A DNA stretch of 24,000 bases from Candidatus Hodarchaeota archaeon (GTDB lineage: Archaea; Asgardarchaeota; Heimdallarchaeia; Hodarchaeales; Hodarchaeaceae). The notes below the pieces were generated by a model. It was not told the DNA's origin. It did no database searches and saw nothing but the letters and a program-made list of their open reading frames with translations. A program made the position numbers and the translations under genes. The number at the start of each line of letters is the position of its first letter. Positions within the stretch are counted from its first letter, which is position 1. Location of the stretch: the NCBI GenBank assembly GCA_016839785.1, contig JAEOTQ010000106.1, positions 5,535 through 29,534 of the forward strand, in the 5' to 3' direction. This document shows positions 434-21,780 of the stretch, piece after piece.

Positions 434-469
434 ACTTAAAAGAGTTTATCCTATTCCCATTAATTGAAA

Positions 470-2182
470 ATGTCCGCTAGTAAAATCAAGTGTTTAACCC
501 TAACTTTTCTGTTAATTTTATCAATTAATAGCTTCATACACTCAATCGGACACCTTTCAATAACAAGAGTAGGTGATGTTTACAAGTTTCAGAGCATTCA
601 TGCTTCTTTTGAAAGAGAGTTATCAGAAATAAACTCGACAGCAATAGAAGAATTTGTAGATGCGTTTTTTGATGAGGAATTACTTAACTCATTCCTAGTT
701 CCTGGAGTTGCTATAACTTTTGTCCAGAATAATGAAACCATATTTACTAAAGGGTTTGGATGGGCAAATGTATCCTCCTCCGTACCTGTTGATGCGAATG
801 AAACGATATTTCGTGCTGGATCCATTTCTAAATCATTTGTAGCCACTGCAGTAATGCAACTCTATGAAAAGGGACTTCTTGAGTTAACTACAGATATTAA
901 TATGTATTCACCTACTTTTAACATTTCTGATTCCTATCCCAACCATCCCATAACATTACATCATCTTTTAACCCATACAGCAGGATTTGATGAGGTGTGG
1001 AATGTCACAACCTCCCCTACTAATATAAGTATCCTACCTGAATTTTTAGAAACTAATTTACCTAAACGAATCTATGCTCCAGGAGAGGTATTTTGCTACT
1101 CCAATTATGGATACGCTCTGGCGGGATATCTTGTAGAAGTGATTTCAGGAATAAATTTTGATCAATATGTGAAGATAAACATTTTTGATCCGTTAGGAAT
1201 GAATTCTTCAGGTTTTGAACAACCATTCAGTTCTTCACATCTTGAGGATTTCGCTCAAGGGTATTACTTTGAAGATGAAGAACCTATACCTCTGGAACTC
1301 TATTACTTTATGGCTTATCCAGCAGGTTCCCTCTATACAACTGCTTCCGACATGTCAAAATTCATTGTTGCCCATCTCAATGGAGGTGTATACAATAATT
1401 CGAGAATCCTCAATACATCCACTATTCAATTAATGCAGAGTAGGCAATTCACTCATCATCCACAGCTGGGAGGATATTGTTATGGATTCTATGAGTATAT
1501 AGATCATATCAATCAAAATATTAGCATTATCCACCATGCGGGAGATCTCTACGGATTCGCAAGCGATTTAGTACTCTTCCCAGAATTAAATTTCGGTTTT
1601 TTCCTTTCTCATAACAGTGTTGGTACTGGATTTCGGGAAGTTTTTCTTGCAGCATTGTTCGATACTTTTTTTCCGACCCCATCCACTGTTCCGATACCCA
1701 CCGACGATTTTATGGATCGTAAACAGCTTTATCAAGGTATTTATTGGTATAACCGATATCCTCATGAGAAATATGAACAAGGTGAGTATTCCGATGTTAT
1801 CCCCTATTCCACCATAGAACTATCTGTAAATGAGTCGGCAGCGACATTAATTACTGTTATTAATGAACAAGGGGAAACTATTAGTGTAGATTGGATTGAA
1901 ATCGAACCCTTTCTCTTTCAATTACCTGAAACAGATACTAAACTGCTGTTGGTTCCTATTGATGACAAGATCCAATATATTATTTTAGGACTGGCTGTAT
2001 ATGAACGACAGGATACGGACGATTCTTCTTTAACCACAACTAGTTTCCAATCAACTACAACAGAAACTACACATTCTAAAGCAAATTTCACCAACATAGG
2101 AATAATTTTTTATGCGGTAATTATTTTAGTATTTCTCTCCAAAAGAAGGAAAAGAAAAAAGATAGACGGTACTCAAAAGTGA
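470..2182 (+). CDS. Secreted, C-terminally membrane-anchored serine hydrolase of the beta-lactamase/DD-peptidase (class C-like, esterase/aminopeptidase) fold
   Basis: The ORF track gives 464..2182 (TTG). An in-frame ATG at 470 is the more likely start. The N-terminus is signal-like (KIKCLTLTFLLILSINSFIHS). Family motifs occur in canonical order: S-x-x-K (SISK, nt 821-832), Y-x-N (CYSNYGYALAGY) and H-x-G in the KTG position (HHAGDLYGF). The C-terminus has a Thr/Ser-rich stretch (SSLTTTSFQSTTTETT), a hydrophobic helix (IGIIFYAVIILVFL) and a basic tail (SKRRKRKK). I count 13 N-x-S/T sequons by hand. Confidence 0.85.
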   Translation: MSASKIKCLTLTFLLILSINSFIHSIGHLSITRVGDVYKFQSIHASFERELSEINSTAIEEFVDAFFDEELLNSFLVPGVAITFVQNNETIFTKGFGWANVSSSVPVDANETIFRAGSISKSFVATAVMQLYEKGLLELTTDINMYSPTFNISDSYPNHPITLHHLLTHTAGFDEVWNVTTSPTNISILPEFLETNLPKRIYAPGEVFCYSNYGYALAGYLVEVISGINFDQYVKINIFDPLGMNSSGFEQPFSSSHLEDFAQGYYFEDEEPIPLELYYFMAYPAGSLYTTASDMSKFIVAHLNGGVYNNSRILNTSTIQLMQSRQFTHHPQLGGYCYGFYEYIDHINQNISIIHHAGDLYGFASDLVLFPELNFGFFLSHNSVGTGFREVFLAALFDTFFPTPSTVPIPTDDFMDRKQLYQGIYWYNRYPHEKYEQGEYSDVIPYSTIELSVNESAATLITVINEQGETISVDWIEIEPFLFQLPETDTKLLLVPIDDKIQYIILGLAVYERQDTDDSSLTTTSFQSTTTETTHSKANFTNIGIIFYAVIILVFLSKRRKRKKIDGTQK

Positions 2183-2236: not shown

Positions 2237-5200
2237 TTACACTTGTTTTTTTCGTATAATAGCAAAGATAATACCCAGAACAAGTAAGGAAAAACTTCCA
2301 AATCCAATTGAAACTTTGGGTTTGGAGGTGGAACTTGTGGTAGGTGGGACCTCAGTAGTGGGTGTAGGAGTACTAGTAGAACTAGATGAACTAGTAGAAG
2401 TCGATGAGGCGCTTGTGATGGTGGTAGTGGTAATTTCAACCATTTTTACTAAAAGAATTACAGTATCAATTGCTTGATTTCCATTAAAATCAGTAACCAC
2501 AAGTGAAAAGGTATATGTGCCTGCAGGAAGATTTCCTACATCAATTGAAACTGAACTGTTCTGATTCCATACACCAGAGGTCAACATCTCTCCATCTTGG
2601 TATATAATATAAGTACCATTATATCTGTCTGATATATTCCAATTTAGAAAGTAGCTAGTTGTGCCTTCCATGTACTCTTCATCATCGTGTGGATTAATTG
2701 TCGGAGGAGTGAGATCTATTACTTCAATAGTGACAACTGACTGCGATTCTTGGCCAAATAAATCCGAGAATGTCATGGTATATGTATAATTACCTAGATC
2801 CAACTCTGGGATTGTTATATTAATCCAGGTATTATTTCCCCAAATACCAGTGATAATAGTCCCGTTTGCTAAAATAAGAGTGTAATTAAAAGGGTAATAA
2901 TCAATTGCTCTCCATGTTAACTCAGAACCAGCTGTCTCCTCTATGGTTTGGTTCAGAGGAGAGTTCACAATAATTGGAGGTGTTACATCTATTACCAGCA
3001 CAAAAACTGTATCTGCAGATGATAATCCCCTAGCATCATAGACTATTATTGTGTAGTTCCATACGCCAGGATGTAAACCATCAATTCTTATTGAAAGTGA
3101 CTCATTTCCAACCCATGAACTAGTTAACGCTAATGAATCATTTTTATATATGAAGAAGACATCAGGATTTAAGTCAGCTACTGTCCAAGTTAATGTATTA
3201 TTGATACTCATTTCCAAGATGAATATATCTGATTCTTCACTAACAAGAGGAGGATTTGAGTCAATTAGTACGAAAACAAATACTGTATCATTTACTGTCA
3301 GATTATCTGTTGTTTTAACGAATATAGAGAAATTATATATTCCTGGGTCAAGATTGTCAACTAGGTAATTTACTAGCGTGCTATTGGTCCAATCATCAGT
3401 CTCAAGGGGGAGATCATCCTGATAAATTGTGTAATTGCCCGTTTTATTACTAATTATGGTCCAACTAATCCAATTATTCATCATCCCTTCAGTATATGTG
3501 ATATTTTCTGGTTGATTGATGGCTAGTCCCTTAACTGGCTCAACTATGACAAACACTGAGTCTTTCAGTGATAGATTACTATGATCGAACACTACTAGTG
3601 TATAATTGTAGATTCCGATACTTGCATTGGCTATTATGAATTGTATTGGAAAGCTACTATTCCAAGAATCCGATTGAACTACTATACCATCTTCATAGAG
3701 TGTATAGTGAGATGGATTATAATCGGTAACTAACCAAGTAATGACGGTACCAGTAGTTTCAACAATAGTTTTGTTCCCTGGACTTGTGATAAGAGGAGGG
3801 GTAGAATCAGGAAGAACAGTAAGGAATAAAGTACTTGTAGCATTCAAAGCTGAAGTATCATGGATCAGAAGAGTAATATTATAGATTCCAGACAAGAAAT
3901 CAGAATAATCTAGAGAAATATTGGTATCAGAGGTCCAATTACCGTCCAAATATACCTGGTCGTCTACAAAAATTGTGAAATTATAAGGATGTATATCATT
4001 CGCAATCCAAGTAATAGGGATAGTCGGGTACCCGTATTCATGGGTGAAGTTCGTAGGGTGACTGACAACAGGAGCAGTTCCATCGTATATTACTACATAA
4101 TGGGTAGAAGAATTGATGTTCGATGAAGAATCATTTACATAAATAATGAATTCAAATACACCCAACGGTAGGTTGGTTACATTCAGAGTAATTGTCTGCC
4201 CAGAAGTCCAAGAACCATTAGCATAAAGAACGCTATCCATGAATATAGAATAGTTCCAAGGATGTAAATCAGTAAGCGTCCAATTGATAGATTTATCAGG
4301 CAATACCTCCATAAAAACAAATATTTTACCAGAATTTAAATTCGGAGGAGTTGTATCTATCACCGTAACAAAGACGGTATCACTACGTTCATTACTATCG
4401 GTATCAATAAACTTGATTGTAATATTATGAACACCTAATCCTAATCCATCAACTGAATAGTTAATAATTTCTCTCGATGTCCAAAGATTAGAGAAAACTG
4501 GTATATCATCAACAAGAATACTGAACATAAATGGACTTTCATCCAAGGCTACCCACGTTAAATTATGCCCAATTGTTGCTTCTTCATAGGTCAGATTCGA
4601 AGGTGGATCAATGATCTCGGGTGGTAATTCTATAGAATACCAAATCATTAACGGGAAGTTGTCACTTGAACTCACAGAACCAGAGATAAGGTATGGGGAG
4701 TCTCCAATACCATCAGAATTATTATCAATACCTCGATAATCCAACCAAAAATTACCATGCGTACCATTATCCCAATTTTGATTATTCCACGTGGAATAAC
4801 CCTGGTTAATCGCTCCTCCGCGATTGTGGAGAAAATTATTCAGATAAATATGGTTTGCGGGTTCACTACTTCCGACATAGATCCCATAATCAGTGCATCC
4901 AATTACGGTATTGTTACGAACAGTAACGTTTCCCGAATCATAGAAATCAATTCCATAATCGCCGCAATTTCGAATCAAGTTGTTTTCTACAGTGGAATTA
5001 AATGACCAAGTAATCGATATCCCATTATAGATCACATTTTCTATATAGTTATTCGCGATATAGGTATCTTCAAAAAAGCCATAAATTCCATATCTTCCAT
5101 CTTTAATAATATTATTGGTTACCGTGGAATTAATAATCGTGGAACTTAATCTAATACCTTCATCAGTGTTGTTTATAATGATGTTGTCAGAAATTATAGT

Positions 5201-6223
5201 ATAATGAGCATAGGAACTTAACCAAATCCCTGAACCATCATTATTGACAATCGTATTGTTTTTAATTATACTATAATAGCCAAAAGAACTGATCCATACA
5301 GCGGCATCGAAATTTCCGTCGAAAGTATTATTGGTTATCCAATTATTCTCCGCATTTGCCACCCAGATGGCTTGATCAAGATTTTGTGTGAAAAAATTGA
5401 ACTGAATATTGAACCAATCTGAATTAGATAATTCAATACATTGTCCAATATTGGATACAAAGAAATTATGCTCTATCGTAGCGTTGTCAGAACTGGTGGA
5501 ATATATCCCATGGTAATTAAATGAGAAATTATTATTCTTGATGTGACTAAATCTCGTACCTTGAAGATAAATGCCTCCATAGTTAGTTCCAGAAGTCTGA
5601 TGAGAAGAAATTTCGTTGTATTGTATAAGAGAGGAATCACCACTAATAACCATACCAAAATTGCCATTATTAGAAATGGTATTATTCTGGGTAATAACGT
5701 CATCACTGTAAAGGATTTCCAGGCCTGCATAGTTGTTGTTCACTAATGTATTATTTTCTATAAGGACCTGATCAGCAGCGACGAAATAAAGGTAGATTCC
5801 ACTTGAAGAGGATCCATTTACAGAAATGTAATTATTTCGAAGAATAAAATTATAACCAGTGGAACGAATCTCAATACCGTGAGTACTTGCCGTTGAGTTA
5901 GTAATGTAATAATTTTCAATAATAAAAGGTGCACTCACCGATCCATTACCCAACCATCCTTCAGAAGCAGCTTGAGTAGCAAAATCAGAGTTTCCACTAA
6001 TGTAGATGGGATTCCGAGAGGTATAGGACTGAGCTTTAAACTGTGGTAGCTTTGGAGAATCTTTTTCTATTTGTCTGAGTGGATATGCAGCGTTACTTAC
6101 TCGGATGGGTTCTAATCCAGAGTCATTTACTCTTATTTCATGAAAATTATGAATAGAACTCAAAATGATCGCTAACAAAAGTATAAAGGGTACGTAGTAT
6201 TTTTTGGAATCAACGCGGGACAT
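2237..6223 (-). CDS. Large cell-surface protein: signal peptide + NosD/CASH-type right-handed parallel beta-helix (PbH1 repeats) + 8 Ig-like repeats + Ser/Thr stalk + C-terminal TM anchor (putative adhesin/S-layer-associated glycoprotein)
   Basis: The ORF track gives 2237..6262 (TTG start). The in-frame ATG at 6223 yields a classic signal peptide (MSRVDSKKYYVPFILLLAIILSSIHNF). The beta-helix entry (NPIYISGNSDFATQAASEGWLGNGSVSAPFIIENYYI) is followed by many ~22-24-aa turns of the type NNxIxxNxxxGIxLxxSxxxxIxxN. The typical exit motif is present (GNFWLDYRGIDNNSDGIGDSPYLISG). Eight ~91-aa repeats then follow, then the stalk TTTTITSASSTSTSSSSSTSTPTPTTEVPPTTSSTS, the TM helix FGSFSLLVLGIIFAII and the tail RKKQV. 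I count about 58 N-x-S/T sequons by hand. Confidence 0.85.
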   Translation of the reverse strand: MSRVDSKKYYVPFILLLAIILSSIHNFHEIRVNDSGLEPIRVSNAAYPLRQIEKDSPKLPQFKAQSYTSRNPIYISGNSDFATQAASEGWLGNGSVSAPFIIENYYITNSTASTHGIEIRSTGYNFILRNNYISVNGSSSSGIYLYFVAADQVLIENNTLVNNNYAGLEILYSDDVITQNNTISNNGNFGMVISGDSSLIQYNEISSHQTSGTNYGGIYLQGTRFSHIKNNNFSFNYHGIYSTSSDNATIEHNFFVSNIGQCIELSNSDWFNIQFNFFTQNLDQAIWVANAENNWITNNTFDGNFDAAVWISSFGYYSIIKNNTIVNNDGSGIWLSSYAHYTIISDNIIINNTDEGIRLSSTIINSTVTNNIIKDGRYGIYGFFEDTYIANNYIENVIYNGISITWSFNSTVENNLIRNCGDYGIDFYDSGNVTVRNNTVIGCTDYGIYVGSSEPANHIYLNNFLHNRGGAINQGYSTWNNQNWDNGTHGNFWLDYRGIDNNSDGIGDSPYLISGSVSSSDNFPLMIWYSIELPPEIIDPPSNLTYEEATIGHNLTWVALDESPFMFSILVDDIPVFSNLWTSREIINYSVDGLGLGVHNITIKFIDTDSNERSDTVFVTVIDTTPPNLNSGKIFVFMEVLPDKSINWTLTDLHPWNYSIFMDSVLYANGSWTSGQTITLNVTNLPLGVFEFIIYVNDSSSNINSSTHYVVIYDGTAPVVSHPTNFTHEYGYPTIPITWIANDIHPYNFTIFVDDQVYLDGNWTSDTNISLDYSDFLSGIYNITLLIHDTSALNATSTLFLTVLPDSTPPLITSPGNKTIVETTGTVITWLVTDYNPSHYTLYEDGIVVQSDSWNSSFPIQFIIANASIGIYNYTLVVFDHSNLSLKDSVFVIVEPVKGLAINQPENITYTEGMMNNWISWTIISNKTGNYTIYQDDLPLETDDWTNSTLVNYLVDNLDPGIYNFSIFVKTTDNLTVNDTVFVFVLIDSNPPLVSEESDIFILEMSINNTLTWTVADLNPDVFFIYKNDSLALTSSWVGNESLSIRIDGLHPGVWNYTIIVYDARGLSSADTVFVLVIDVTPPIIVNSPLNQTIEETAGSELTWRAIDYYPFNYTLILANGTIITGIWGNNTWINITIPELDLGNYTYTMTFSDLFGQESQSVVTIEVIDLTPPTINPHDDEEYMEGTTSYFLNWNISDRYNGTYIIYQDGEMLTSGVWNQNSSVSIDVGNLPAGTYTFSLVVTDFNGNQAIDTVILLVKMVEITTTTITSASSTSTSSSSSTSTPTPTTEVPPTTSSTSKPKVSIGFGSFSLLVLGIIFAIIRKKQV
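2438..4624 (-). repeat. Eight tandem ~91-aa (about 273 nt) Ig-like/beta-sandwich repeats inside the surface protein (protein-level repeat)
   Basis: Track residues ~547-1275. Each unit reads roughly: PP..x5-10..(L/I)(T/S)W...D..P..Y.I(Y/F).D......W.......(I/V)......G.Y.(Y/F)......D..(G)N...D.V.V.V.D.TPP. The boundary motifs fall at residues 638-640 (TPP), 729-731 (TAP), 821-823 (TPP), ~908-912 (EPVKG), 1003-1005 (NPP), 1094-1096 (TPP) and 1185-1187 (TPP). That gives a period of 88-93 aa. Confidence 0.8.
4649..6013 (-). repeat. Protein-level PbH1 / parallel beta-helix repeat region (NosD/CASH-like) inside the surface protein
   Basis: Track residues ~84-538 hold successive short repeats rich in N, G and I. 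Examples: NNYISVNGSSSSGIYLYF, ENNTLVNNNYAGLEILYS, QNNTISNNGNFGMVISG, KNNTIVNNDGSGIWLSS, SDNIIINNTDEGIRLSS, VENNLIRNCGDYGIDFYD, VRNNTVIGCTDYGIYVGS. The repetition is at protein level only. The DNA copies are diverged. Confidence 0.75.
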
Positions 6224-6420
6224 TGGGGGACTTCCTAACGAAAAACAATTTAATAGACACAAAAGATAGTGTAATTACATCTTTTCTTCTTAATAAGAAG
6301 CACTAGATAATTTCTCCGAACGTTACCTTATTTCCACAATATTTAATTATTCGAGCAAATACTTAATTGGAAACAAGAAAATTGCCTTCAGTATTCAAGT
6401 TAACAAAAGAGTTGAGCAGT

Positions 6421-7254
6421 ATGGAGCATGAAGAAAGTAAATATGTCACTCGGGATGGAATAGACATTTTTTATCAGGTGTGGAAACCTGAAGGGACACC
6501 TAAGGGAATTGTACAAATAGTTCACGGATTAGCAGAACATGCAGGGCGGTATATGCATGTCGTTAACAAACTTGTACCACAAGGATATTTAATCTATGGT
6601 GATGACCATCGAGGACATGGACGATCAGGTGGACATAAAGGATTTGTTAAGTCAATTAATGATTTTGTACAGGATCAAAAGGAATTTACAAAGATAATAA
6701 AGGATAAAGAAGGCGCAAATTTACCTCTTTTCTTACTTGGTCATTCTATGGGATCTTTGATATCAATTCTTTACATATCTGATTCTCCTGATGACTTCAA
6801 AGGGCTTATTCTTTCTGGTACTGGATCAGCTGTAGGAGAAGGAGTGAATTGGTTTACAATAATATTAGCAAAAACAATGTCAAAAATATTACCAAAAATG
6901 ACGTTAAAAAATGAATTATCGGATGGAGTATCACGAGATCCCGCAGTAAAAGAAGCTTATAATAATGATCCATATGTATTAGACAAGATAACCACTAGAC
7001 TCGGAGCTGAAATTTTTACTGGACTTAAAGCAGCTAAAAGCAGTATTGGAAATATCAAGATCCCTATTTTAGTGCAAAAAGGTGGAGAAGATCCTTTAAT
7101 AATAAAAACAGAGGAATTGATGAAGAACGTGACTACTGAGGATTCCACCTTAAAGATGTATGAGGGATTATTTCACGAAGTGTATAATGAGCTAGAAGAG
7201 GATCGAGAAGTTGTCCTTAATGATCTAAACGAGTGGTTAAATTCTCATCTCTAA
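6421..7254 (+). CDS. Alpha/beta-hydrolase, monoacylglycerol lipase / lysophospholipase-like
   Basis: The ORF track gives 6367..7254 (TTG). The in-frame ATG at 6421 (MEHEESKY...) is preferred. The HG-x-x-EH-x-x-RY box (VHGLAEHAGRY) is typical of the MGL/lysophospholipase (PldB-like) family. The nucleophile elbow is G-H-S-M-G-S (nt 6739-6756). A candidate acid lies in GGEDP and a candidate catalytic His in EGLFHEVYNE near the C-terminus. Confidence 0.85.
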   Translation: MEHEESKYVTRDGIDIFYQVWKPEGTPKGIVQIVHGLAEHAGRYMHVVNKLVPQGYLIYGDDHRGHGRSGGHKGFVKSINDFVQDQKEFTKIIKDKEGANLPLFLLGHSMGSLISILYISDSPDDFKGLILSGTGSAVGEGVNWFTIILAKTMSKILPKMTLKNELSDGVSRDPAVKEAYNNDPYVLDKITTRLGAEIFTGLKAAKSSIGNIKIPILVQKGGEDPLIIKTEELMKNVTTEDSTLKMYEGLFHEVYNELEEDREVVLNDLNEWLNSHL

Positions 7255-7459: not shown

Positions 7460-8461
7460 TTGGTGAGAAAATTGGCGATTGAACCACAATATGCTATTGA
7501 AGTGAAGGGTCTTAGGAAAACCTTCGGTAAAGGGGAGAATAAAGTCGAAGCTGTACGGGGAGTCTCACTCCAAGTCAGAAAAGGTGAAATTTTTGGATTT
7601 TTAGGTCCAAACGGTGCTGGAAAAACCACAAGTTTACGAATGATGGTAGGACTACTTAATCCTAGTGCAGGAAATGTGATAATTTTAGGAAAGGATCCTA
7701 AAGAGAAACAAAATCAAGATTTTATCAAGGAAAAAATTGGGATCATCCCTCAAGAAGTCTCTCTATATTTGGAATTAACAGTGGAAGAGAATCTATGGTT
7801 TATCGCGAATGCTTATCGGGTTCCTTCAGCAGATGCAAAAGTGACGATTGATAAACTAATCAGTGATATGGGGTTAGAAGAGAAACGAAAAGCATTGGCG
7901 AAGAACCTTTCGGGAGGAATGAAGCGACGATTAAATTTAATAATGGGATTAGTGCATAATCCCGAACTAGTCCTTTGTGATGAACCAACACCTGGACTTG
8001 ATCCTCAATCACGAGTGGTTGTTTGGGAATATATCCAGGACTTACCCAAGCAAGGAAAAACGGTCATTTTAACAACCCATTTTATGGAAGAGGCTGATCG
8101 TCTTTCAGATCGGGTCGCTATAATCGACAATGGTGAAGTGCTTGTGCTCGACTCTCCTAAAGCTCTAAAAAAATCCGTTGGCGAAGGCGATCTTGTTGAG
8201 TTTATGCTTGAAAATACCGAAAAAGATCATTTGGAACAGATTGCCTCTGCTTTGAGAGAATTTAATGGAGGAAAAGCTATACAAGAAGTATACATTTCTT
8301 CTAATCGTGTGATCATGCGATCTAAGGATGTTATATCGAATCTTTCACGGATTCTGAACCATATTGAGGATCAGGGAGCAGAAGTAGAAAACATGGCTAT
8401 TCGGAATACTACACTTGAGGATGTATTTATTTCCCTCACTGGAAGAGCTTTACGTAATTAA
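7460..8461 (+). CDS. ABC transporter ATP-binding protein (ABC-2/DrrA-NatA-like exporter ATPase)
   Basis: Walker A is GPNGAGKTT (nt ~7604-7630). The Q-loop is IGIIPQE, the ABC signature LSGGMKRRL, Walker B LVLCDEPTPGLD and the H-loop LTTHFMEEA. The C-terminal ~100 aa form an accessory domain common in ABC-2 ATPases. The start is non-ATG (TTG 7460, GTG 7463 or TTG 7472), so the exact start is uncertain. Confidence 0.9.
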   Translation: MVRKLAIEPQYAIEVKGLRKTFGKGENKVEAVRGVSLQVRKGEIFGFLGPNGAGKTTSLRMMVGLLNPSAGNVIILGKDPKEKQNQDFIKEKIGIIPQEVSLYLELTVEENLWFIANAYRVPSADAKVTIDKLISDMGLEEKRKALAKNLSGGMKRRLNLIMGLVHNPELVLCDEPTPGLDPQSRVVVWEYIQDLPKQGKTVILTTHFMEEADRLSDRVAIIDNGEVLVLDSPKALKKSVGEGDLVEFMLENTEKDHLEQIASALREFNGGKAIQEVYISSNRVIMRSKDVISNLSRILNHIEDQGAEVENMAIRNTTLEDVFISLTGRALRN

Positions 8462-8466
8462 GGGAG
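8462..8466 (+). promoter_or_regulatory. Shine-Dalgarno-like GGGAG upstream of the first permease gene
   Basis: GGGAG lies 9 nt upstream of ATG 8476 and directly after the ATPase stop (8459-8461). This is consistent with operonic translation. Confidence 0.45.
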
Positions 8467-8475
8467 ATATTTTTA

Positions 8476-9846
8476 ATGTTACCCTTGGAAATTGCTAAAC
8501 GGTTTGGAAAAGAGCTCATCCGAATGCGAATTTCGCTTGTTGTCTTACTGGCTTTACCAGCATTTATGGCATTCATGTTTTGGTTCGCCTTTAATAGCGC
8601 AGGTCTTGGTTCAACAGAAACATATATCCTAGGAGTTGTAAATGAAGATGAGGGGGTTGCTGATGAATTAGCTGCATATTTTCAAGTAGTCAACAGTGTC
8701 TATGATACAGGTATCTCCAATACAACATTGACACATGGATTTGCACATGATTTCATCCAATCTTTAAAGTCAATTAATTATACAAATGAGCAGAATACGG
8801 CTGATAACATCCCAATTTTTACTATAGAAGAGTATGATACATCAGAAATAGCATTAAATAACTCTAATCCTAATGAAGATGTTGAATCTAGAGACATTGA
8901 CGCATTACTTTATTTTCCTAGAAATTATTCCAATACAACCCTTTCAGCAGTCAATAATGCGAATTTCATCCAATCAGGGCTCTATCTCGACGAAAATCCT
9001 TTTTGGGTTGGTCCCCCAATTCCAAAATCGGATAATAGTGAACTCAAAATTGTCGGAGACGAAGGTTATACTCGGTATTTAATTGTTAAAGTGATCCTGA
9101 GTAAAATCTTAACTGCATTTATGGAGAATATTCATAATTTCCAATATTCTGGCGGTAATGTTGATTATGAAATTAATTCGGTCGCACTTAAAGAATACAG
9201 CATATTTGATACAATAATGCCCGGAATCCTTGTATTTGGAATCCTTACACAGTCAGGAATGTTAGCTGCGTTTCTTGTAAGCGAGTTCGCAGAAACACAA
9301 ACCATGACTCGTGTCAGATTATCTCTCATAAAACCTTGGGAATATATTATGGGAGTTTCAATCTATCAGTTTATTGTCTCATTTTTCCAAATGGGAATTC
9401 TTTTCGTTCTGCCCATTTTATTATTAGGTTTTCGTCCTGCAGGAAGTTTAATTGAAGGATTTCTAGTACTCTTAGTAACTACCGTATTTACGACTGGTTT
9501 AGGTTTTGTATTAGCAGGGATATTCACTTCTTCTGATACTGCAGGTCAATCTTCTGGTTTTCTAATGACCCCTATTGCTTTCATGTCTGGGGCATTTATG
9601 GAGGTTCCTACAATTACTCTATTTCCCAGCGTTATCCCTACAGCTTCAGGAATTCCTCGTGATTTCATTTTATGGGATATAATACCAACAACCCATACTG
9701 TAAATGCTCTTCGGTCAATTTTATTATATGAATTTTCAGTAACTGATGTTTGGGGTGAACTCATGCTATTAATAATTCCCTCTATACTTCTTCTAGTATT
9801 TGGGATGATTTTCTATAGTAAACGACGATTTGCAGGAGATATCTAG
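8476..9846 (+). CDS. ABC-2 type transporter permease with large extracytoplasmic domain (permease A)
   Basis: TM1 is ISLVVLLALPAFMAFMFWFAF. A ~200-aa hydrophilic, sequon-bearing segment follows (aa ~41-245, nt ~8596-9210). After it come five hydrophobic helices and the conserved ABC-2 region TRVRLSLIKPWEYIMGVSIYQFIVSFFQ. The protein is paralogous to the next ORF. Confidence 0.8.
   Translation: MLPLEIAKRFGKELIRMRISLVVLLALPAFMAFMFWFAFNSAGLGSTETYILGVVNEDEGVADELAAYFQVVNSVYDTGISNTTLTHGFAHDFIQSLKSINYTNEQNTADNIPIFTIEEYDTSEIALNNSNPNEDVESRDIDALLYFPRNYSNTTLSAVNNANFIQSGLYLDENPFWVGPPIPKSDNSELKIVGDEGYTRYLIVKVILSKILTAFMENIHNFQYSGGNVDYEINSVALKEYSIFDTIMPGILVFGILTQSGMLAAFLVSEFAETQTMTRVRLSLIKPWEYIMGVSIYQFIVSFFQMGILFVLPILLLGFRPAGSLIEGFLVLLVTTVFTTGLGFVLAGIFTSSDTAGQSSGFLMTPIAFMSGAFMEVPTITLFPSVIPTASGIPRDFILWDIIPTTHTVNALRSILLYEFSVTDVWGELMLLIIPSILLLVFGMIFYSKRRFAGDI
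9834..9838 (+). promoter_or_regulatory. Shine-Dalgarno-like AGGAG plus stop/start abutment (TAG-ATG) coupling the two permease genes
   Basis: AGGAG lies 8 nt upstream of ATG 9847. The stop TAG at 9844-9846 is immediately followed by the ATG. Confidence 0.5.
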
Positions 9847-11163
9847 ATGAACTTGACCATTAGAATTTTCATTCGGTCATTCAAACAGGTCATTCGATCT
9901 CCAGCACGGCTTTCCCTCATCATAGGCTTCCCAATCTTTTTTATTATGATTTTTGCATTTATTTTTGGAGGAGGCGTTGATGAAACAACGGTATCTCTAG
10001 GATTCCTTAACCTTGATGATTCAGGACTGCTGGAATCTGATTGGGAAGAGGATTTTACTAACTTCACAGACGCGTGGGGAGATAATGATTCAATAAATCC
10101 ATTTACAGTAGGATTTGGAGAATACTTTGTTAGGAGTCTAGAAGGTCAAGCGAATTTAGACATATCTAATAGCACGTTTCGAATAGTGGAGTTCAATTCT
10201 ATAGATGAAATGCTTGTTTCTGTGCAAAGTAGGGCTGTTTCAATCGGGATTGTAATACCCAGTGATTTTTCACTCGCAGTTTTATCTGGACTTAATTCAC
10301 GTGAAACTATTCTTACTGGACAACCAATTGTGGATAATTCTTTGATCTTAAGACAAAACCTAACCATCAATATTCTTGGTGATCCAAGCTTTTTAGCGTT
10401 TCAAACTGGCCTTACAGAAGTTGAAAATGCGCTAGATAGTTTTCAATCTCAAGTCTATGGAATACAGGTTCCAGCAGGTAACTTTCAATCGGTTTTTGAA
10501 AATGTTGTAAGCTATGAATTAACCCAGTTCGACTATTTCATCTCTGGATTCTTTACGTTTGGGCTAATCCTAACTTCAAGCGGTATTGCTGGTATCATTG
10601 GTGAAGAACGGGACTATCGGACACTGGAAAGACTCAAATTAAGCCAGGTAAAACCTGCTGAATATCTCCTTGGTATCTCTCTTAATCAAATAGTCCTTGC
10701 TATTATTCAGGTTGTCATAATGTTTGGTGCAGCCTATCTTTTTGGGTTTAGAGGTCAAGGAAATCCAATTTTTGCAGCATTAATAGCAATTATTACTCTT
10801 CTTCCAGTTTTAGGATTGGCTGTATTTGTAAGTGCATTTGTACCTAATGGCCGTGATGCTAATGGAGTGATTGCAATGCTCAGTGCCCCTATAGGATTTG
10901 TATCAGGTGCATTCCTTCCTGTTCCAGAAATTCCACTAATTCAAAATCTCGTCCCTGATGGATCGGGTTCACTTCGAGCATTGCAATTATGGGATTTCTT
11001 CCCGTTTCATGCATCTACAAAAGCCATAAGGAATATCTTACTATTTGATCACTCCTTTGCCCAAATTCTGCCAGATTTATTCTTTTTGATTATTGGTGGT
11101 CTACTGTTCTTCGGTTTTGGTATGTTCTTCTTTGTTAAAAGGATATTCACCCCAGAAAATTAG
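9847..11163 (+). CDS. ABC-2 type transporter permease with large extracytoplasmic domain (permease B, paralog of permease A)
   Basis: The topology matches permease A: TM1 is LSLIIGFPIFFIMIFAFIF, the external segment spans aa ~42-228 (nt ~9970-10530), and five helices follow. Stretches alignable with permease A include LERLKLSQVKPAEYLLGISLNQIVLAIIQ vs TRVRLSLIKPWEYIMGVSIYQFIVSFFQ. A second example is VSGAFLPVPEIPLIQNLVPDGSGSLRALQLWDFFPFHASTKAIRNILLF vs MSGAFMEVPTITLFPSVIPTASGIPRDFILWDIIPTTHTVNALRSILLY. Confidence 0.8.
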   Translation: MNLTIRIFIRSFKQVIRSPARLSLIIGFPIFFIMIFAFIFGGGVDETTVSLGFLNLDDSGLLESDWEEDFTNFTDAWGDNDSINPFTVGFGEYFVRSLEGQANLDISNSTFRIVEFNSIDEMLVSVQSRAVSIGIVIPSDFSLAVLSGLNSRETILTGQPIVDNSLILRQNLTINILGDPSFLAFQTGLTEVENALDSFQSQVYGIQVPAGNFQSVFENVVSYELTQFDYFISGFFTFGLILTSSGIAGIIGEERDYRTLERLKLSQVKPAEYLLGISLNQIVLAIIQVVIMFGAAYLFGFRGQGNPIFAALIAIITLLPVLGLAVFVSAFVPNGRDANGVIAMLSAPIGFVSGAFLPVPEIPLIQNLVPDGSGSLRALQLWDFFPFHASTKAIRNILLFDHSFAQILPDLFFLIIGGLLFFGFGMFFFVKRIFTPEN

Positions 11164-12301: not shown

Positions 12302-15300
12302 TCATTGGTTATCTTTCTGACTCTTTTTAATACCAAGGGCTTCACGTACATATTCCTCAACTCTTTTATGTTGATCTTGAGGGGAAAGTTGAGTATCAAG
12401 CTTAAGAATTGAAGTGATGTTAGTTCGAAGTCTTTCAAACTTAACTGATTCTTTCATTGCGATATCATAATAAAGCTTCATATTTTCTTGCTGTGCAATT
12501 CTTAGACATTTATTAATCCAATGTTCCACTTGATTAAACTGAAATGATGCAAGGTCTATTCTTGCTCTCAACAGGTACACTTGACAGAGTTCAGAGTAGT
12601 ATTGATTGTTCTCACAGTCATCTTGCCATTTATTTAGCATGGTGAGCATTTTCTTCTTAGCTACCGGTGAAGGATTACTCAACCAGGTTTTAAATTCGGA
12701 TGCCACAAGAGCACCTTGACAGATGACTTGAAATTCCACATCTAAATTCTCATTATCTAGGGCTGTGATCCATTCTTTTTCTGCTGATCCCCAATTTTTC
12801 TCCGTTTCAGCAAGTAAGGCTTGGATCATGTGATGGAATGCAACAACAGCGGGATGCTTATACGGTGGGGTGGGAAAACGTTGAAGGATGTGGCTTTCAG
12901 GGGTCAGAATTTGTGTTTCTTTCTGCAGAAGAACTATTCTGAGAGATGTTTCAGCGACCATTCTATCGTTTTCTAATAGCTCAAAAACATCCAGAGCGGA
13001 TTCATACTGCTGGATGGATTTTAAAAATTCACATTGAAGGTAAAGGGCATTAGCTTTTGCTAGTAATGTCTTGGCATCTGTTTCAGTTTGCACTAATGCG
13101 ACATAATCAGTAAATCCTAGTTTTTGAATTTTTAACGCAGTAGGATAATCAGGAGCTTTTAATTTCGTAATCCAATTTCTTTTTTCAGTTTCTCGTCTGA
13201 TTCTGACAATAAAGGCTGCTAAGGCAATGTTGGTAATAATAATTAATAATCCTACATGAAATATACTGAAACTGATAAGCGGAAAACTCCAAAATTCACG
13301 GGGATTAGTCCCCCCTCTATATTCGTCTACATTATGAACCCAATCCCCATCTAAATCGAGTTTCGCGTCACTTGGATCTTGTGCATTAAGCCCCATTCTA
13401 AATTCCCAAACATCAGGCATACCATCAATGTCTCGATCATAAAAAGCGTAGATTTTGTCAATGTATTGAAATTCAGGACCAAAATTCATTGGATTTAGAG
13501 AACCACTCTCATTATAGTTTTGTATCCAATCACGGAAAGCCACTAATTTCAACTTTTGATTGAGATAAATATACAGAGAATCATTAGCTGCTATTTCCTC
13601 AATATTTTGGTACATCTCTCGACGAACGTCAATATCCTGTTCAATCGCTGCATCTTCTATCAGAGTGTTCAAAGATGGATTTTCATATGAGAGCATTGTC
13701 GCAAAAACACCATATTGTCCATGTAAATACGGAGCAATAAAATTGTCTGGATCTGCATAATCTGCAGCCCATCCACAATAATTAAGAGGGATTTTTTGAT
13801 GCCAAGAGACCTCATCATACTGATCCTGTTCCATGGGTTGTAGAATTGCCCTTATCCCCACATCACACATCACCAGGGAGTTAGCTAGGGATAAGTAGAT
13901 GTACGAAAGTATTTCGTTATTAACAGGATACACTAATTTAATAGTTCCTTGCCAACCAACTTGCTCAAATAGTATTCTAGCTGTTTCTAAATCGTAGGAG
14001 GGAAGAAGACCCTTTTCTGTTAGATTTTCATTATGACCAAGAATTCCCTCAGGAATGATTCCTTCCATCTGTTTCCCAATTCCATTGAGAATATTATCGA
14101 TATAAAACGAGTAATCAAAAGCACTAGCCATGGCTTTACGGAATATAACCGAAGTAAATGGATTGTTTTGACTTGCTTTTACTTCACCTTTGGCAAATCG
14201 TGATAGGAGACTCGCGTTGTAAATAGAATTTTCTGATTCATTCAGATAGATTTGGGATAGGGATTCTTTCATATTCATCCCTAGAAAGAATGTGGTAGAT
14301 GTTGGGGCGGTAAAAGTAGTTATTCCTTCATAAAGCGACTCACCTGCAGGAGTGATGATTTTATACGCATCTGGTTTTTCTACATAAACCATATCAGAAT
14401 CACCATTGATTAAATTTTGAATGCGGGTGTCATCATCTATTTCCGATCTAATTTCGATCTCCTCGACAGAATGTAAACTAAATGATCCCCACCAATTGTC
14501 ATTTTTCTGAAGAAGAATAGAATTTTCAGTTAGCGACTGTAATTTATATGCTCCAGTGCCAATTGCGTGGTTTTTCATCCATGAATGATAAGAATCACTA
14601 AAGCGATGCGATCCAGGGACTACACCAGATATTTTTGGATTATGATCACTCGTCAATCCCAATTTGGTATAATCCGAGAGGGTGGAAAACCATTTATCCA
14701 GAGGAACCATACCATACACTTTATCCCCAATAAACAATGTGTATTCCGTTGGTCGATTATCTATAACAGCTTTTGGGGAAACAGCACTTCCTACATCGAA
14801 CGCGAGAGAATTAATAAATGGTGAATATGCAGACTCAAGGTTGATTTCTAAAGTATAATCATCTACAACCACAACTCCTCCTGCATCAAGATAAGCTTGT
14901 GCTTCTGTATAATTGGGATTAAAATATTGCATATAGGTTGATCCACCCTTGATAACTTGAGCTATCATCCAAGAGGGCCCCCATGGATCGTTCATGAGTA
15001 TAGATCTATCAATAGAATATTTCATTACGTAGGCGTTAAAAACGACACCATCGTGGAATACAACGTTCTTACGAAGGTTAAAGGTATATACTCGTCCATT
15101 TGGTGAGACAGTCCATCCCGTGGCTAGTCTACCTTCAAGTTCATCGACTGAATTCCCTTTATATCCAACTAAGGATTCATATATCAATTCAATAATAGTA
15201 CTCCCAGTGGTCTCATAATTGATCCCTGGATCTAAGGATTTAATGGCATTTGGTATACTCAGTGTTTCCCAGATAAATTTATCGGGATTCTTTAGTTCCC

Positions 15301-15412
15301 CATTTGCCCTAGAAGCGTGTATTACTGCTGTGGAAGGTTGTATGGCAATTAAAATACTCAGAATCAAAATTGGGAGAATAAATCTAAGATATAGGCCATT
15401 CCTAGCAGTCAT
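12302..15412 (-). CDS. Fusion protein: signal peptide + family-5 (Opp/Dpp/Nik-type) solute-binding domain + acidic Ca-binding-like (TSP3-like) motif + single TM helix + ~300-aa cytoplasmic TPR-like helical domain
   Basis: The ORF track gives 12302..15421 (GTG). I prefer the ATG at 15412 because that GTG sits inside a GAGGTGA Shine-Dalgarno-like element 6-8 nt upstream of it. The signal-like N-terminus is RNGLYLRFILPILILSILIAIQPSTAVIHA. The family-5 SBP hallmark is LATGWTVSPNGRVYTFNLRKNVVFHDG. See the sub-features for the C-terminal parts. The frame is uninterrupted throughout. Confidence 0.8.
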   Translation of the reverse strand: MTARNGLYLRFILPILILSILIAIQPSTAVIHASRANGELKNPDKFIWETLSIPNAIKSLDPGINYETTGSTIIELIYESLVGYKGNSVDELEGRLATGWTVSPNGRVYTFNLRKNVVFHDGVVFNAYVMKYSIDRSILMNDPWGPSWMIAQVIKGGSTYMQYFNPNYTEAQAYLDAGGVVVVDDYTLEINLESAYSPFINSLAFDVGSAVSPKAVIDNRPTEYTLFIGDKVYGMVPLDKWFSTLSDYTKLGLTSDHNPKISGVVPGSHRFSDSYHSWMKNHAIGTGAYKLQSLTENSILLQKNDNWWGSFSLHSVEEIEIRSEIDDDTRIQNLINGDSDMVYVEKPDAYKIITPAGESLYEGITTFTAPTSTTFFLGMNMKESLSQIYLNESENSIYNASLLSRFAKGEVKASQNNPFTSVIFRKAMASAFDYSFYIDNILNGIGKQMEGIIPEGILGHNENLTEKGLLPSYDLETARILFEQVGWQGTIKLVYPVNNEILSYIYLSLANSLVMCDVGIRAILQPMEQDQYDEVSWHQKIPLNYCGWAADYADPDNFIAPYLHGQYGVFATMLSYENPSLNTLIEDAAIEQDIDVRREMYQNIEEIAANDSLYIYLNQKLKLVAFRDWIQNYNESGSLNPMNFGPEFQYIDKIYAFYDRDIDGMPDVWEFRMGLNAQDPSDAKLDLDGDWVHNVDEYRGGTNPREFWSFPLISFSIFHVGLLIIITNIALAAFIVRIRRETEKRNWITKLKAPDYPTALKIQKLGFTDYVALVQTETDAKTLLAKANALYLQCEFLKSIQQYESALDVFELLENDRMVAETSLRIVLLQKETQILTPESHILQRFPTPPYKHPAVVAFHHMIQALLAETEKNWGSAEKEWITALDNENLDVEFQVICQGALVASEFKTWLSNPSPVAKKKMLTMLNKWQDDCENNQYYSELCQVYLLRARIDLASFQFNQVEHWINKCLRIAQQENMKLYYDIAMKESVKFERLRTNITSILKLDTQLSPQDQHKRVEEYVREALGIKKSQKDNQ
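12305..13204 (-). other. Cytoplasmic ~300-aa helical, TPR-like domain of unknown function
   Basis: Residues 740-1039 have a K/E/Q/L-rich composition with a single isolated sequon, in contrast to the ectodomain. Helical-hairpin-like stretches include AKTLLAKANALYLQCEFLKSIQQYESALDVFELL, HPAVVAFHHMIQALLAETEKNWGSAEKEWITAL and YYSELCQVYLLRARIDLASFQFNQVEHWINKCLRIAQQ. I see no kinase, HAMP, MCP, GGDEF or DNA-binding motif. Confidence 0.5.
13205..13291 (-). other. Single predicted transmembrane helix separating ectodomain from cytoplasmic domain
   Basis: Residues 711-739 read WSFPLISFSIFHVGLLIIITNIALAAFIV. They are followed by RIRRETEKR, a positive-inside signature. Confidence 0.7.
13301..13438 (-). 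other. Juxtamembrane acidic D-x-D-G repeat pair resembling bacterial/archaeal thrombospondin-type-3 (TSP3)/dockerin-like Ca-binding motifs
   Basis: Residues 662-707 read RDIDGMPDVWEFRMGLNAQDPSDAKLDLDGDWVHNVDEYRGGTNP. This matches the recurrent pattern D-x-D-G-(D-G)-hPDxWE...GLNP.DP.D...D.DGD....N..EY..GTNP seen in many secreted prokaryotic proteins. I recognised the pattern from memory. Confidence 0.55.
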
Positions 15413-15417
15413 TTGGT

Positions 15418-15424
15418 TCACCTC
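15418..15424 (-). promoter_or_regulatory. Shine-Dalgarno-like GAGGTGA upstream of ATG 15412
   Basis: The reverse strand reads ...GGTTTGAGGTGAACCAAATGACT. GAGG is followed by 8 nt and then ATG. Confidence 0.5.
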
Positions 15425-20751: not shown

Positions 20752-21780
20752 TTGAAGGTATCTAACCAGGTTTTCGTCATCACCCTTATTTTGAGCACGA
20801 TACCCTTAGGCTTAGTTATTCTTCAACTTCAAAATGATGAAACAATTACTCCCAATGATGATTTTTTTGAATTATCGATCGGCAATATACCGACAATAAA
20901 TGTATCTACTTGGTTAATGCCAATAGAGGGTGAAATTGAAAATCCTGTTGTCTTTTCCTATGAAAATTTAACCTCCTTACCAACTCTAACGATTAATGCC
21001 ACTTTAAGAAGTGTAAGTGGAAATTCAGGAAGAGCAGAATGGCGTGGAGTTCCATTAAAAAATATATTAGATACAGTTCGACCTACTGAAAATGCTTATG
21101 ATGTGGTTTTTTATGCCGCTGATGGATACACTTCTTCATTAACAATAGAAGAAATTAACACCTCGGAAATTCTTCTGGTATTTGAAATGAACAAAGAAAC
21201 CTTACCAGCAGGTCAGGGTTTTCCGCTAAGAGTTATTGCACCCGGGTACTATGGCTACAAGTGGGTAAAATGGTTGATAAAAATCGATATTGTAGAAACT
21301 GATTATATTGGGTTTTGGGAATCTAGAGGATGGAATGATAATGCTCGATTTTCTATTGAACGTGATTGGTCAGTACATGCCCTTCTATTTTCAATTTCAT
21401 TTATGTTCGGCGTAGCATCAATGATGACGGGATTAAAATTTTCTAGAACCTCAATATTATTTAAGGATCTACCACGATTTATGAATCGGAGATTTCACCA
21501 CTTTTTATCATTAACATACGTGATTTCAGCTTTCATCGTGTTTATTTATTGGATCATTCAGACGTTAATCGATCGGGGGAGGATTTTTTATACACCACAT
21601 GGAATTGTTGGATTTATTTCTATATTGTTGCTGTTAGTAACTGCAATAACTGGGATGAAGAGAGTTATTAGAAATCCTGAATATAAAGGGGTTCATCGTG
21701 GATTATACTTTTGGGCAGTCTTCGTTTTCTTAGTTTCCATTGTATTAGGGTTGTTGCTTTCCATAGTTTTTTTCTATTAA
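20752..21780 (+). CDS. Fusion of an N-terminally anchored molybdopterin-oxidoreductase-like (sulfite oxidase/MsrP-YedY fold) domain with a C-terminal 4-TM His-bearing (b-type cytochrome-like) module; contains no cysteine
   Basis: TTG start. The N-terminal hydrophobic anchor is VFVITLILSTIPLGLVIL. Oxidored_molyb-like motifs follow: WLMPIEGEIENPVVFSYENLTSLP, AEWRGVPLKNILD, VVFYAADGYTSSL, LLVFEMNKETLPAGQGFPLRVIAPGYYGYKWVKWLIKIDIVETDYIGFWESRGW. Four hydrophobic helices then each begin with a His: H209, H249/H250, H283 and H315. The 342-aa translation contains zero Cys. Confidence 0.75.
   Translation: MKVSNQVFVITLILSTIPLGLVILQLQNDETITPNDDFFELSIGNIPTINVSTWLMPIEGEIENPVVFSYENLTSLPTLTINATLRSVSGNSGRAEWRGVPLKNILDTVRPTENAYDVVFYAADGYTSSLTIEEINTSEILLVFEMNKETLPAGQGFPLRVIAPGYYGYKWVKWLIKIDIVETDYIGFWESRGWNDNARFSIERDWSVHALLFSISFMFGVASMMTGLKFSRTSILFKDLPRFMNRRFHHFLSLTYVISAFIVFIYWIIQTLIDRGRIFYTPHGIVGFISILLLLVTAITGMKRVIRNPEYKGVHRGLYFWAVFVFLVSIVLGLLLSIVFFY

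Follow-up and report, generated by a model that had tools for sequence, protein, structure and literature searches.

What is the function of a long, repeat-bearing archaeal protein that databases place with NosD? The question arises at a locus in assembly GCA_016839785.1 (248 contigs, 4.04 Mb, completeness 84.5%), where we examined positions 5,535-29,534 of the forward strand of contig JAEOTQ010000106.1; this stretch of 24,000 nucleotides is called the window here, and coordinates refer to it unless another contig is named. Its minus-strand interval 2237-6262 is a single open reading frame (ORF) of 1341 amino acids from a TTG start, with the stop codon at 2237-2239, and NCBI names the orthologs of the product "NosD domain-containing" or parallel beta-helix repeat proteins. 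In order, the protein comprises a signal peptide, a beta-helix head, eight units of 91 amino acids, a Ser/Thr linker, a membrane helix and an RKKQV tail. Its nearest homologs are labelled Candidatus Hodarchaeales or Kariarchaeaceae (Heimdallarchaeia, Asgard) by their sources. This architecture supports the surface protein that the original prediction, made from sequence alone, had proposed: the ORF probably encodes a cell-surface protein, sugar coat included, of a Heimdallarchaeia (Hodarchaeales-like) Asgard archaeon. As to its function, we favor, with a probability of roughly 0.6, an exported, N-glycosylated adhesin or ligand-binding protein, anchored by a lipid or by its helix, in which a passive stalk carries a putative binding head. 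So read, it would serve as an adhesin or receptor and belong to a large family of stalked surface proteins with fast turnover; it would be neither an enzyme nor a NosD chaperone.

The head (amino acids ~81-543; 4634-6022, on the minus strand like all parts of the gene) matches Pfam Beta_helix PF13229 in four stretches (162.4 bits against a cut-off of 25.9, E = 8.7e-48) and Pfam NosD PF05048 (105.8 bits, E = 2.9e-30), the two together spanning amino acids ~128-530. It also matches NCBIfam para_beta_helix TIGR03804 in eight stretches (53.8 bits against a cut-off of 19.45). An AlphaFold2 model of residues 45-730, computed from an alignment with 22 homologs, reached a mean predicted local distance difference test score (pLDDT) of 90.7 and a predicted template modeling score of 0.81. 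The model runs from a disordered stretch through a short N-cap helix, ~16 coils and a C-cap to two immunoglobulin (Ig)-like domains; each coil has three short strands, and between model residues 69 and 434 a new coil begins every ~23 residues. As modelled, the head is a right-handed parallel beta-helix of ~16 turns, of the NosD/CASH type that had been predicted. The C-terminal cap motif (amino acids 496-541; 4640-4777), which consists of GNFW..Y and a D.N.DG.GD loop, matched 2kzw_A in a phmmer search of the PDB (E = 1.7e-7) and is the most conserved part of the head among nine orthologs. The loop resembles a calcium-binding loop and may bind Ca2+.

Does such a head bind a ligand or act on one? 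A Foldseek search of the PDB returned other beta-helices, namely a GH110 galactosidase (E = 3.5e-10), phage tailspikes, PfbA and the AlgG epimerase. That enzymes are among the best of these matches weighs against a binding head, and the head could instead be an extracellular lyase, hydrolase or epimerase active on polysaccharides, which the stalk would hold out to reach polymeric substrates. A weak match to an alpha-1,3-glucanase in a sequence search of the PDB (E = 0.0018) points the same way, as do a GH16 gene adjoining the gene of ortholog P0005 and the enzyme heads, phosphoesterases and a metalloprotease, of other proteins in the genome that carry the 91-residue unit. However, because template modeling (TM) scores of the Foldseek matches were only 0.17-0.31 and identities only 8-17%, we take the similarity to be on the level of the fold. 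In an alignment of the heads of the nine orthologs, conservation was confined to the N-cap, an Asn ladder, the repeated YG positions of the coils and the C-cap; a search of this alignment for the catalytic Asp/Glu constellation that an enzyme would be expected to show found no conserved cluster of Asp, Glu, His, Lys or Arg in the helix body. Moreover, the number of turns varies, two coils being missing in orthologs P0005, P0013, P0022 and P0003, and the GH16 neighbor is not conserved. The lack of a conserved acidic cluster together with the variable coil number makes an enzyme less likely than a head that binds or has a structural role. The carbohydrate-cleaving head that had been offered as one option is thus not borne out, and we consider an enzymatic function unlikely.

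Is the protein then a NosD, as its label suggests? Both the studied protein and the NosD of NosDFY (7o0y) are extracytoplasmic right-handed beta-helices with a related repeat pattern. The Pfam NosD score given above, a match of the head to 7o0y in a sequence search of the PDB (E = 5.7e-4) and the genes on the other strand would agree with a true accessory of a neighboring ABC transporter, comparable to NosD with NosFY: an ABC ATPase and two ABC2_membrane_3 permeases of the ABC-2 type (456 and 438 amino acids) are encoded at 7460-11163 on the plus strand, 1.2 kb from the studied gene. But the protein scores only 76.2 bits on the NosD family model TIGR04247, for which the cut-off is 300, and at a genome completeness of 84.5% we detected no match to NosZ. 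In contrast to NosD, it is without NosZ or a conserved ABC partner, since no such transporter neighbors the orthologs P0005 and P0003, and it is ~900 residues longer through its stalk and anchor. Some 24 ORFs in the genome share the Pfam domain, and a head placed on an eight-domain stalk could hardly dock as NosD does on NosY. An operon of NosDFY type with the adjacent ABC-2 transporter was therefore rejected, with its sub-threshold NosD score, missing NosZ and synteny that is not conserved, and we regard a NosD-like role as highly improbable. The "NosD" label is misleading for this protein and is corrected here. An S33 alpha/beta hydrolase is encoded at 6367-7254, upstream of the ABC genes.

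Comparison with archaeal NosD/PbH1 surface proteins (PF13229 plus PF05048) gives a more suitable setting. By hidden Markov model the head belongs to their family, and the N-cap and C-cap motifs are alike, including GN.W..Y...D.D.DG.gD..Y as in PDB 2kzw. Euryarchaeal relatives carry PKD (PF18911/PF00801), Big_7 or CARDB domains, whereas the stalk studied here consists of the Asgard 91-residue unit instead; the studied protein also differs in showing no link to N2O reductase. Within the genome, the ~24 ORFs with NosD-type heads (the studied one included; further examples lie on C49, C133, C76, C248, C163 and C116) indicate that this head family is strongly expanded. An ortholog of the head is present in only one of 12 congeners (G102; a 1285-amino acid ORF with 40-43% identity), and matches in the others are at the level of paralogs. 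This distribution argues for a variable repertoire of adhesins or receptors rather than for a core envelope protein.

Three observations concern the orthologs and more distant relatives themselves. The gene call of P0003 begins within the beta-helix, and a call of 160 amino acids upstream overlaps it, so that truncation or a frameshift at its 5' end is probable. A gene with a gelsolin domain, which counts among the eukaryotic signature proteins, follows ~9.5 kb downstream (L013:22917-23243, plus strand). P0059, which its source labels Odinarchaeota, is a protein of 2299 amino acids that combines a NosD-type beta-helix with SBP_bac_5 according to a precomputed Pfam list, and it is a possible link between NosD-type heads and peptide-binding proteins.

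Behind the head follows the array. Seeded with the last unit, a phmmer search within the protein recovered exactly eight units, as had been predicted, the seven non-seed units at E-values from 5.6e-7 to 1.2e-11. Unit 1 (amino acids 544-638; 4349-4633) and unit 2 (639-730; 4073-4348) are the two Ig-like domains included in the AlphaFold model of the head. They are followed by unit 3 (731-821; 3800-4072), unit 4 (822-912; 3527-3799), unit 5 (913-1003; 3254-3526), unit 6 (1004-1094; 2981-3253), unit 7 (1095-1185; 2708-2980) and unit 8 (1186-1276; 2435-2707). Units 1 to 7 were delimited by the self-search and alignment, supplemented for units 2 to 7 by comparison with orthologs. Pairwise protein identity among the eight averages 28% (range 20-35%). 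Two W and one G are invariant in all units, and D.(T/N)PP closes five of the eight, similar to the unit ends noted earlier.

The array had been described as old, and several results agree. Codon-aligned DNA identity between units averages 44%, and Tandem Repeats Finder reported no period of ~273 bp at the DNA level, as expected of an old array. Units at the same position in the studied protein and in orthologs P0005 and P0003 share 48-82% identity, compared with ~30% off the diagonal. This position-by-position orthology means that the eight-unit array predates the divergence of these proteins, and we read it as ancient, not as a recent expansion. Unit 2 (4073-4348, minus strand) stands out with 82% and 74% identity between orthologs, the other seven units ranging from 48 to 73%, which hints at a position-specific role.

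To which family does the unit belong? AlphaFold2 modelled unit 8, from a 16-row alignment termed A2 (the eight units plus eight single paralog units from the same genome), as a seven-strand sandwich with a pLDDT of 96.6, in accordance with the Ig-like fold proposed before. The best Foldseek matches of this model were Fn3-like modules of CbhA (E = 7.1e-5); titin and MAG Ig domains matched at TMq 0.73-0.79, and CARDB and the Y_Y_Y domain of a Bacteroides sensor were also found, all of them generic matches. The 50 best Foldseek matches contained Fn3-like and I-set Ig structures instead of any PKD structure. On the sequence level, Pfam K319L-like_PKD PF22352 scored 46.2 bits for the whole protein against a threshold of 27. 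Its alignment, however, covers only profile positions ~41-84 of 84, that is the last 35-45 residues of the unit, and only two of the eight units are matched, unit 8 among them (amino acids 1229-1272). Coverage is likewise confined to the second half in five diverse relatives. These last 35-45 residues, a hairpin of the form G.Y.[FY]..V.D..G....V.V, also match solved PKD domains of KIAA0319L, and both PF22352 and the unit are seven-strand sandwiches; the N-terminal half of the unit (P..I..P...T..E, W...D..P..Y.I..D) found no match. HYR PF02494 was absent at E <= 1 for the whole protein and, at the same limit, from the 15 families returned when the eight units were scanned one by one. The named Ig families tried for the unit (PKD, HYR, Big, Y_Y_Y, TIG, CARDB and fn3) gave partial or sub-threshold matches only. 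The model places the unit in the Ig-like/E-set fold class, and its sequence has a motif in common with PKD-like domains. The earlier statement that it maps to no named family holds insofar as no curated model describes all 91 residues; it does not hold in the sense of an orphan, because the second half matches PF22352.

The unit is far from restricted to this protein. Of the 201 genomes sampled in the Asgard phylum, 158 matched a profile built from A2, many of them with at least 26 scored unit matches. In a library of 1.84 billion proteins, the profile matched 24,672 representative proteins (clusters), 7,323 of them at E <= 1e-10, and the longest arrays reached 38 units. Close orthologs carry 7-10 units behind a head of the same kind, and other homologs have 10-17 units without a match to a beta-helix head. 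A single unit also occurs in each of eight other exported proteins of the genome, followed directly by a Ser/Thr linker and then by a C-terminal helix. The heads in front of it are unrelated: two metallophosphoesterases, an LVIVD propeller with fn3, a Kelch propeller, a 1444-amino acid alpha-toroid, an M12-like metalloprotease and two of unknown type. That the unit sits close to the membrane behind unrelated heads is our principal argument for a spacer and against a functional site. The unit is among the commonest modules of Asgard surface proteins and not special to the protein studied here. Two surface metallophosphoesterases that are paralogs lie in tandem at C168:36083-38901 (L004, L007), both with one unit and a sorting-type tail.

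How the protein is held at the cell surface is a further question. After unit 8 comes a Ser/Thr/Pro-rich linker (amino acids 1277-1317; 2312-2434), the stalk segment that had been foreseen before the C-terminal helix; the 50 residues preceding the helix are 68% S/T/P, and the linker is probably extended and O-glycosylated. The last 24 residues (amino acids 1318-1341; 2240-2311) form a tripartite tail of SIGFGS, a hydrophobic helix of ~14 residues and RKKQV. The helix and the RKKQV end had been recognized before, as a plain membrane anchor. They are present, but we prefer to read the tail as a PGF-type Heimdall-CTERM sorting signal in degenerate form; the second choice is a plain type I anchor. 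Its layout (Ser/Thr-rich linker, small GF motif, helix, Arg/Lys) recurs in the eight unit-bearing paralogs and in the orthologs, and it is like that of the PGF-CTERM/ArtA system of haloarchaea and methanogens, in which a Ser/Thr-rich linker, a GF motif, one helix and a basic tail also follow one another. In Haloferax, ArtA substrates (PGF-CTERM) are cleaved and lipid-anchored (PMC7157517).

The genome has an enzyme that could act on such tails. A protein of 247 amino acids on contig C222 (L001:1408-2151, minus strand) matches the heimdallarchaeosortase model NF045528 with 278.5 bits (cut-off 130) and the ArtA model with only 23.4 bits (cut-off 75); read from its sequence, it has an ACTG Cys motif and, further on, an Arg and a His. 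Pfam Exosortase_EpsH found no match in the genome, nor in the controls Haloferax and Methanosarcina, and TIGR04178, TIGR04125 and NF045528 were used for the sortase searches instead. Within the class, 43 of 45 genomes (the studied one included) scored above the NF045528 cut-off, compared with one of 156 phylum genomes sampled outside it. Heimdall-CTERM and heimdallarchaeosortase are known from curated models, and neither is mentioned in the literature searched; it is for ArtA in Haloferax that lipid anchoring is established (PMC7157517).

Is the studied tail itself a substrate? Three observations speak against it. First, the curated Heimdall-CTERM model NF045529 (26 positions, cut-off 24 bits) did not match its last 40 residues at E <= 10; six of the eight unit-bearing paralog tails did match, at 12.7-23.2 bits and all below 24. 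Because the curated model missed the studied tail, we built a model from the genome itself. A scan of all genome ORFs for a canonical tail, defined as [PSTN]GF, 15-24 hydrophobic residues and a basic end, yielded 49, mostly with PGF(E/S/D). Second, on the profile of these 49 tails the studied one scored only 13.7 bits (E = 0.012 among 4,433 C-termini), compared with 15-28 bits for the ortholog tails. Third, the orthologs have S(P/T)GFEG where the studied copy has SIGFGS. Relative to the PGF-CTERM/ArtA system, the motif is IGF and the genomic sortase is not ArtA. With Pro replaced by Ile, and Glu by Gly, the protein may stay a helix-anchored type I membrane protein, uncleaved, in which the xGF resemblance is a decayed remnant. 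Set against this are the canonical motif and better scores of the orthologs, the co-occurrence of 49 canonical tails with one heimdallarchaeosortase in the genome, and the GF that is kept at the right distance from the helix. We consider the ordinary transmembrane anchor a strong contender, with slightly less than an even chance; the odds that the studied copy is still processed by the sortase would be roughly even. Convergent with the studied gene, 464-2182 (plus strand) encodes a 572-amino acid serine hydrolase of the beta-lactamase fold (Pfam E = 3.1e-49) with a signal peptide, 13 sequons, a Ser/Thr-rich linker, a C-terminal helix and KRRKRKK, a similar anchor without the GF motif.

At the other end of the protein, an identical public record, P0002, has 1328 amino acids and begins at M14, and the corresponding ATG at 6221-6223 is likely the true start. 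The signal peptide (amino acids 14 to ~38; 6149-6223) could also be verified by reading the sequence: it is Sec-like, with KK in a basic n-region followed by a hydrophobic core of 13 residues, and orthologs have a similar N terminus. A linker of low confidence follows (amino acids ~39-80; 6023-6148), residues 1-31 of the AlphaFold model having pLDDT values below 50.

The protein contains 58 N-X-S/T sequons, an approximately twofold excess over the 27.2 +/- 4.5 found in 1000 shuffles, and the genome has an STT3/AglB gene (145.7 bits). Glycosylation of N-X-S/T has been demonstrated in cultured Asgard archaea, in which peptide-binding proteins of the SBP_bac_5 type are the main N-glycoproteins (PMC11284389; 10.1101/2025.02.26.640444). 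A protein of this type is also encoded in the window (12302-15421, minus strand); it has 1039 amino acids, a C-terminal extension of ~450 amino acids without a C-terminal helix, and seven sequons.

A large, secreted, sequon-rich and C-terminally anchored protein resembles the S-layer glycoproteins of haloarchaea, and the original prediction had included an S-layer association among its options. Cultured Lokiarchaeia lack an ordered S-layer and have many unidentified protruding surface proteins (PMC9834061); a Hodarchaeales isolate has an S-layer-like lattice (10.1101/2025.02.26.640444), which is a point for an S-layer or other lattice-forming envelope protein. However, the distribution described above, with an ortholog in one of 12 congeners and ~24 similar heads in the genome, does not support this option, and a thin head-on-stalk shape suggests no planar lattice. 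The report on the isolate describes its S-layer protein as conserved across lineages and as a homotetramer with a central pore, and beta-helix, NosD and PKD are never mentioned in the supplements searched (10.1101/2025.02.26.640444). A direct link to the reported protein was set aside, as the report and these supplements contain no domain description to compare. We judge a lattice-forming role to be quite improbable, though less so than the NosD-like one.

Taken as an adhesin or ligand-binding protein, the product would be exported by Sec and heavily N-glycosylated by AglB, and its C-terminal helix would hold it at the membrane. The heimdallarchaeosortase would then probably cleave near the xGF motif and transfer the protein onto a lipid, as ArtA does with PGF-CTERM proteins in haloarchaea. 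The eight Ig-like domains and the linker would act as a passive spacer of ~30 nm, which would lift a head of ~8 nm (both estimates from domain counts) beyond small surface proteins, where the head would bind an external ligand, most likely a glycan or the surface of another cell. A comparable design is found in PfbA of Streptococcus pneumoniae (4mr0; Foldseek E = 2.4e-6, TMt 0.42), which has a beta-helix binding head, and PfbA and long Ig-repeat adhesins are similar to the studied protein in a C-terminal sorting signal and a repetitive Ig-like extender. Unlike PfbA, to which it has 17% identity and no sequence relationship, the studied protein is a predicted archaeal N-glycoprotein, and the sorting enzymes differ.

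More broadly, we propose that the unit represents a distinct Ig-like family which Asgard surface proteins outside the S-layer use as their standard extender close to the membrane, that head-on-stalk proteins of this type are the "complex surface densities" of cryo-tomography, and that in Heimdallarchaeia they are attached by a class-specific sortase. This proposal is tentative, and in its full extent we hold it to be doubtful. If true, the head would be held some 30-40 nm out, and such densities have been proposed to mediate cell-cell contacts relevant to eukaryogenesis. The locus is a well-modelled example of an Asgard surface-protein build consisting of an interchangeable head, a shared Ig-like extender and a Ser/Thr linker, to which the Heimdallarchaeia version adds a PGF-type tail, with a sortase specific to the class as its counterpart. 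Within a repertoire of surface proteins that is very large, the studied protein is fairly ordinary and not exceptional. Interest attaches to the Asgard-wide extender without a model of its own, to the Heimdall sortase system and to Asgard surface proteins in cell-cell contact. The A2 profile of the extender could be used to annotate Asgard surface proteomes, and the 49 ORFs with canonical tails are predicted sortase substrates in this genome.

Scans of the window for tRNA and Rfam families returned nothing. Two further genes in the window are unrelated to the stalked beta-helix protein: a molybdopterin oxidoreductase fused to a DUF4079 membrane domain (20752-21780, plus strand) and a radical SAM-like ORF of 678 amino acids (21875-23911, minus strand), whose scores for Radical_SAM (28.4 bits) and B12-binding (19.9 bits) are just under the Pfam cut-offs.

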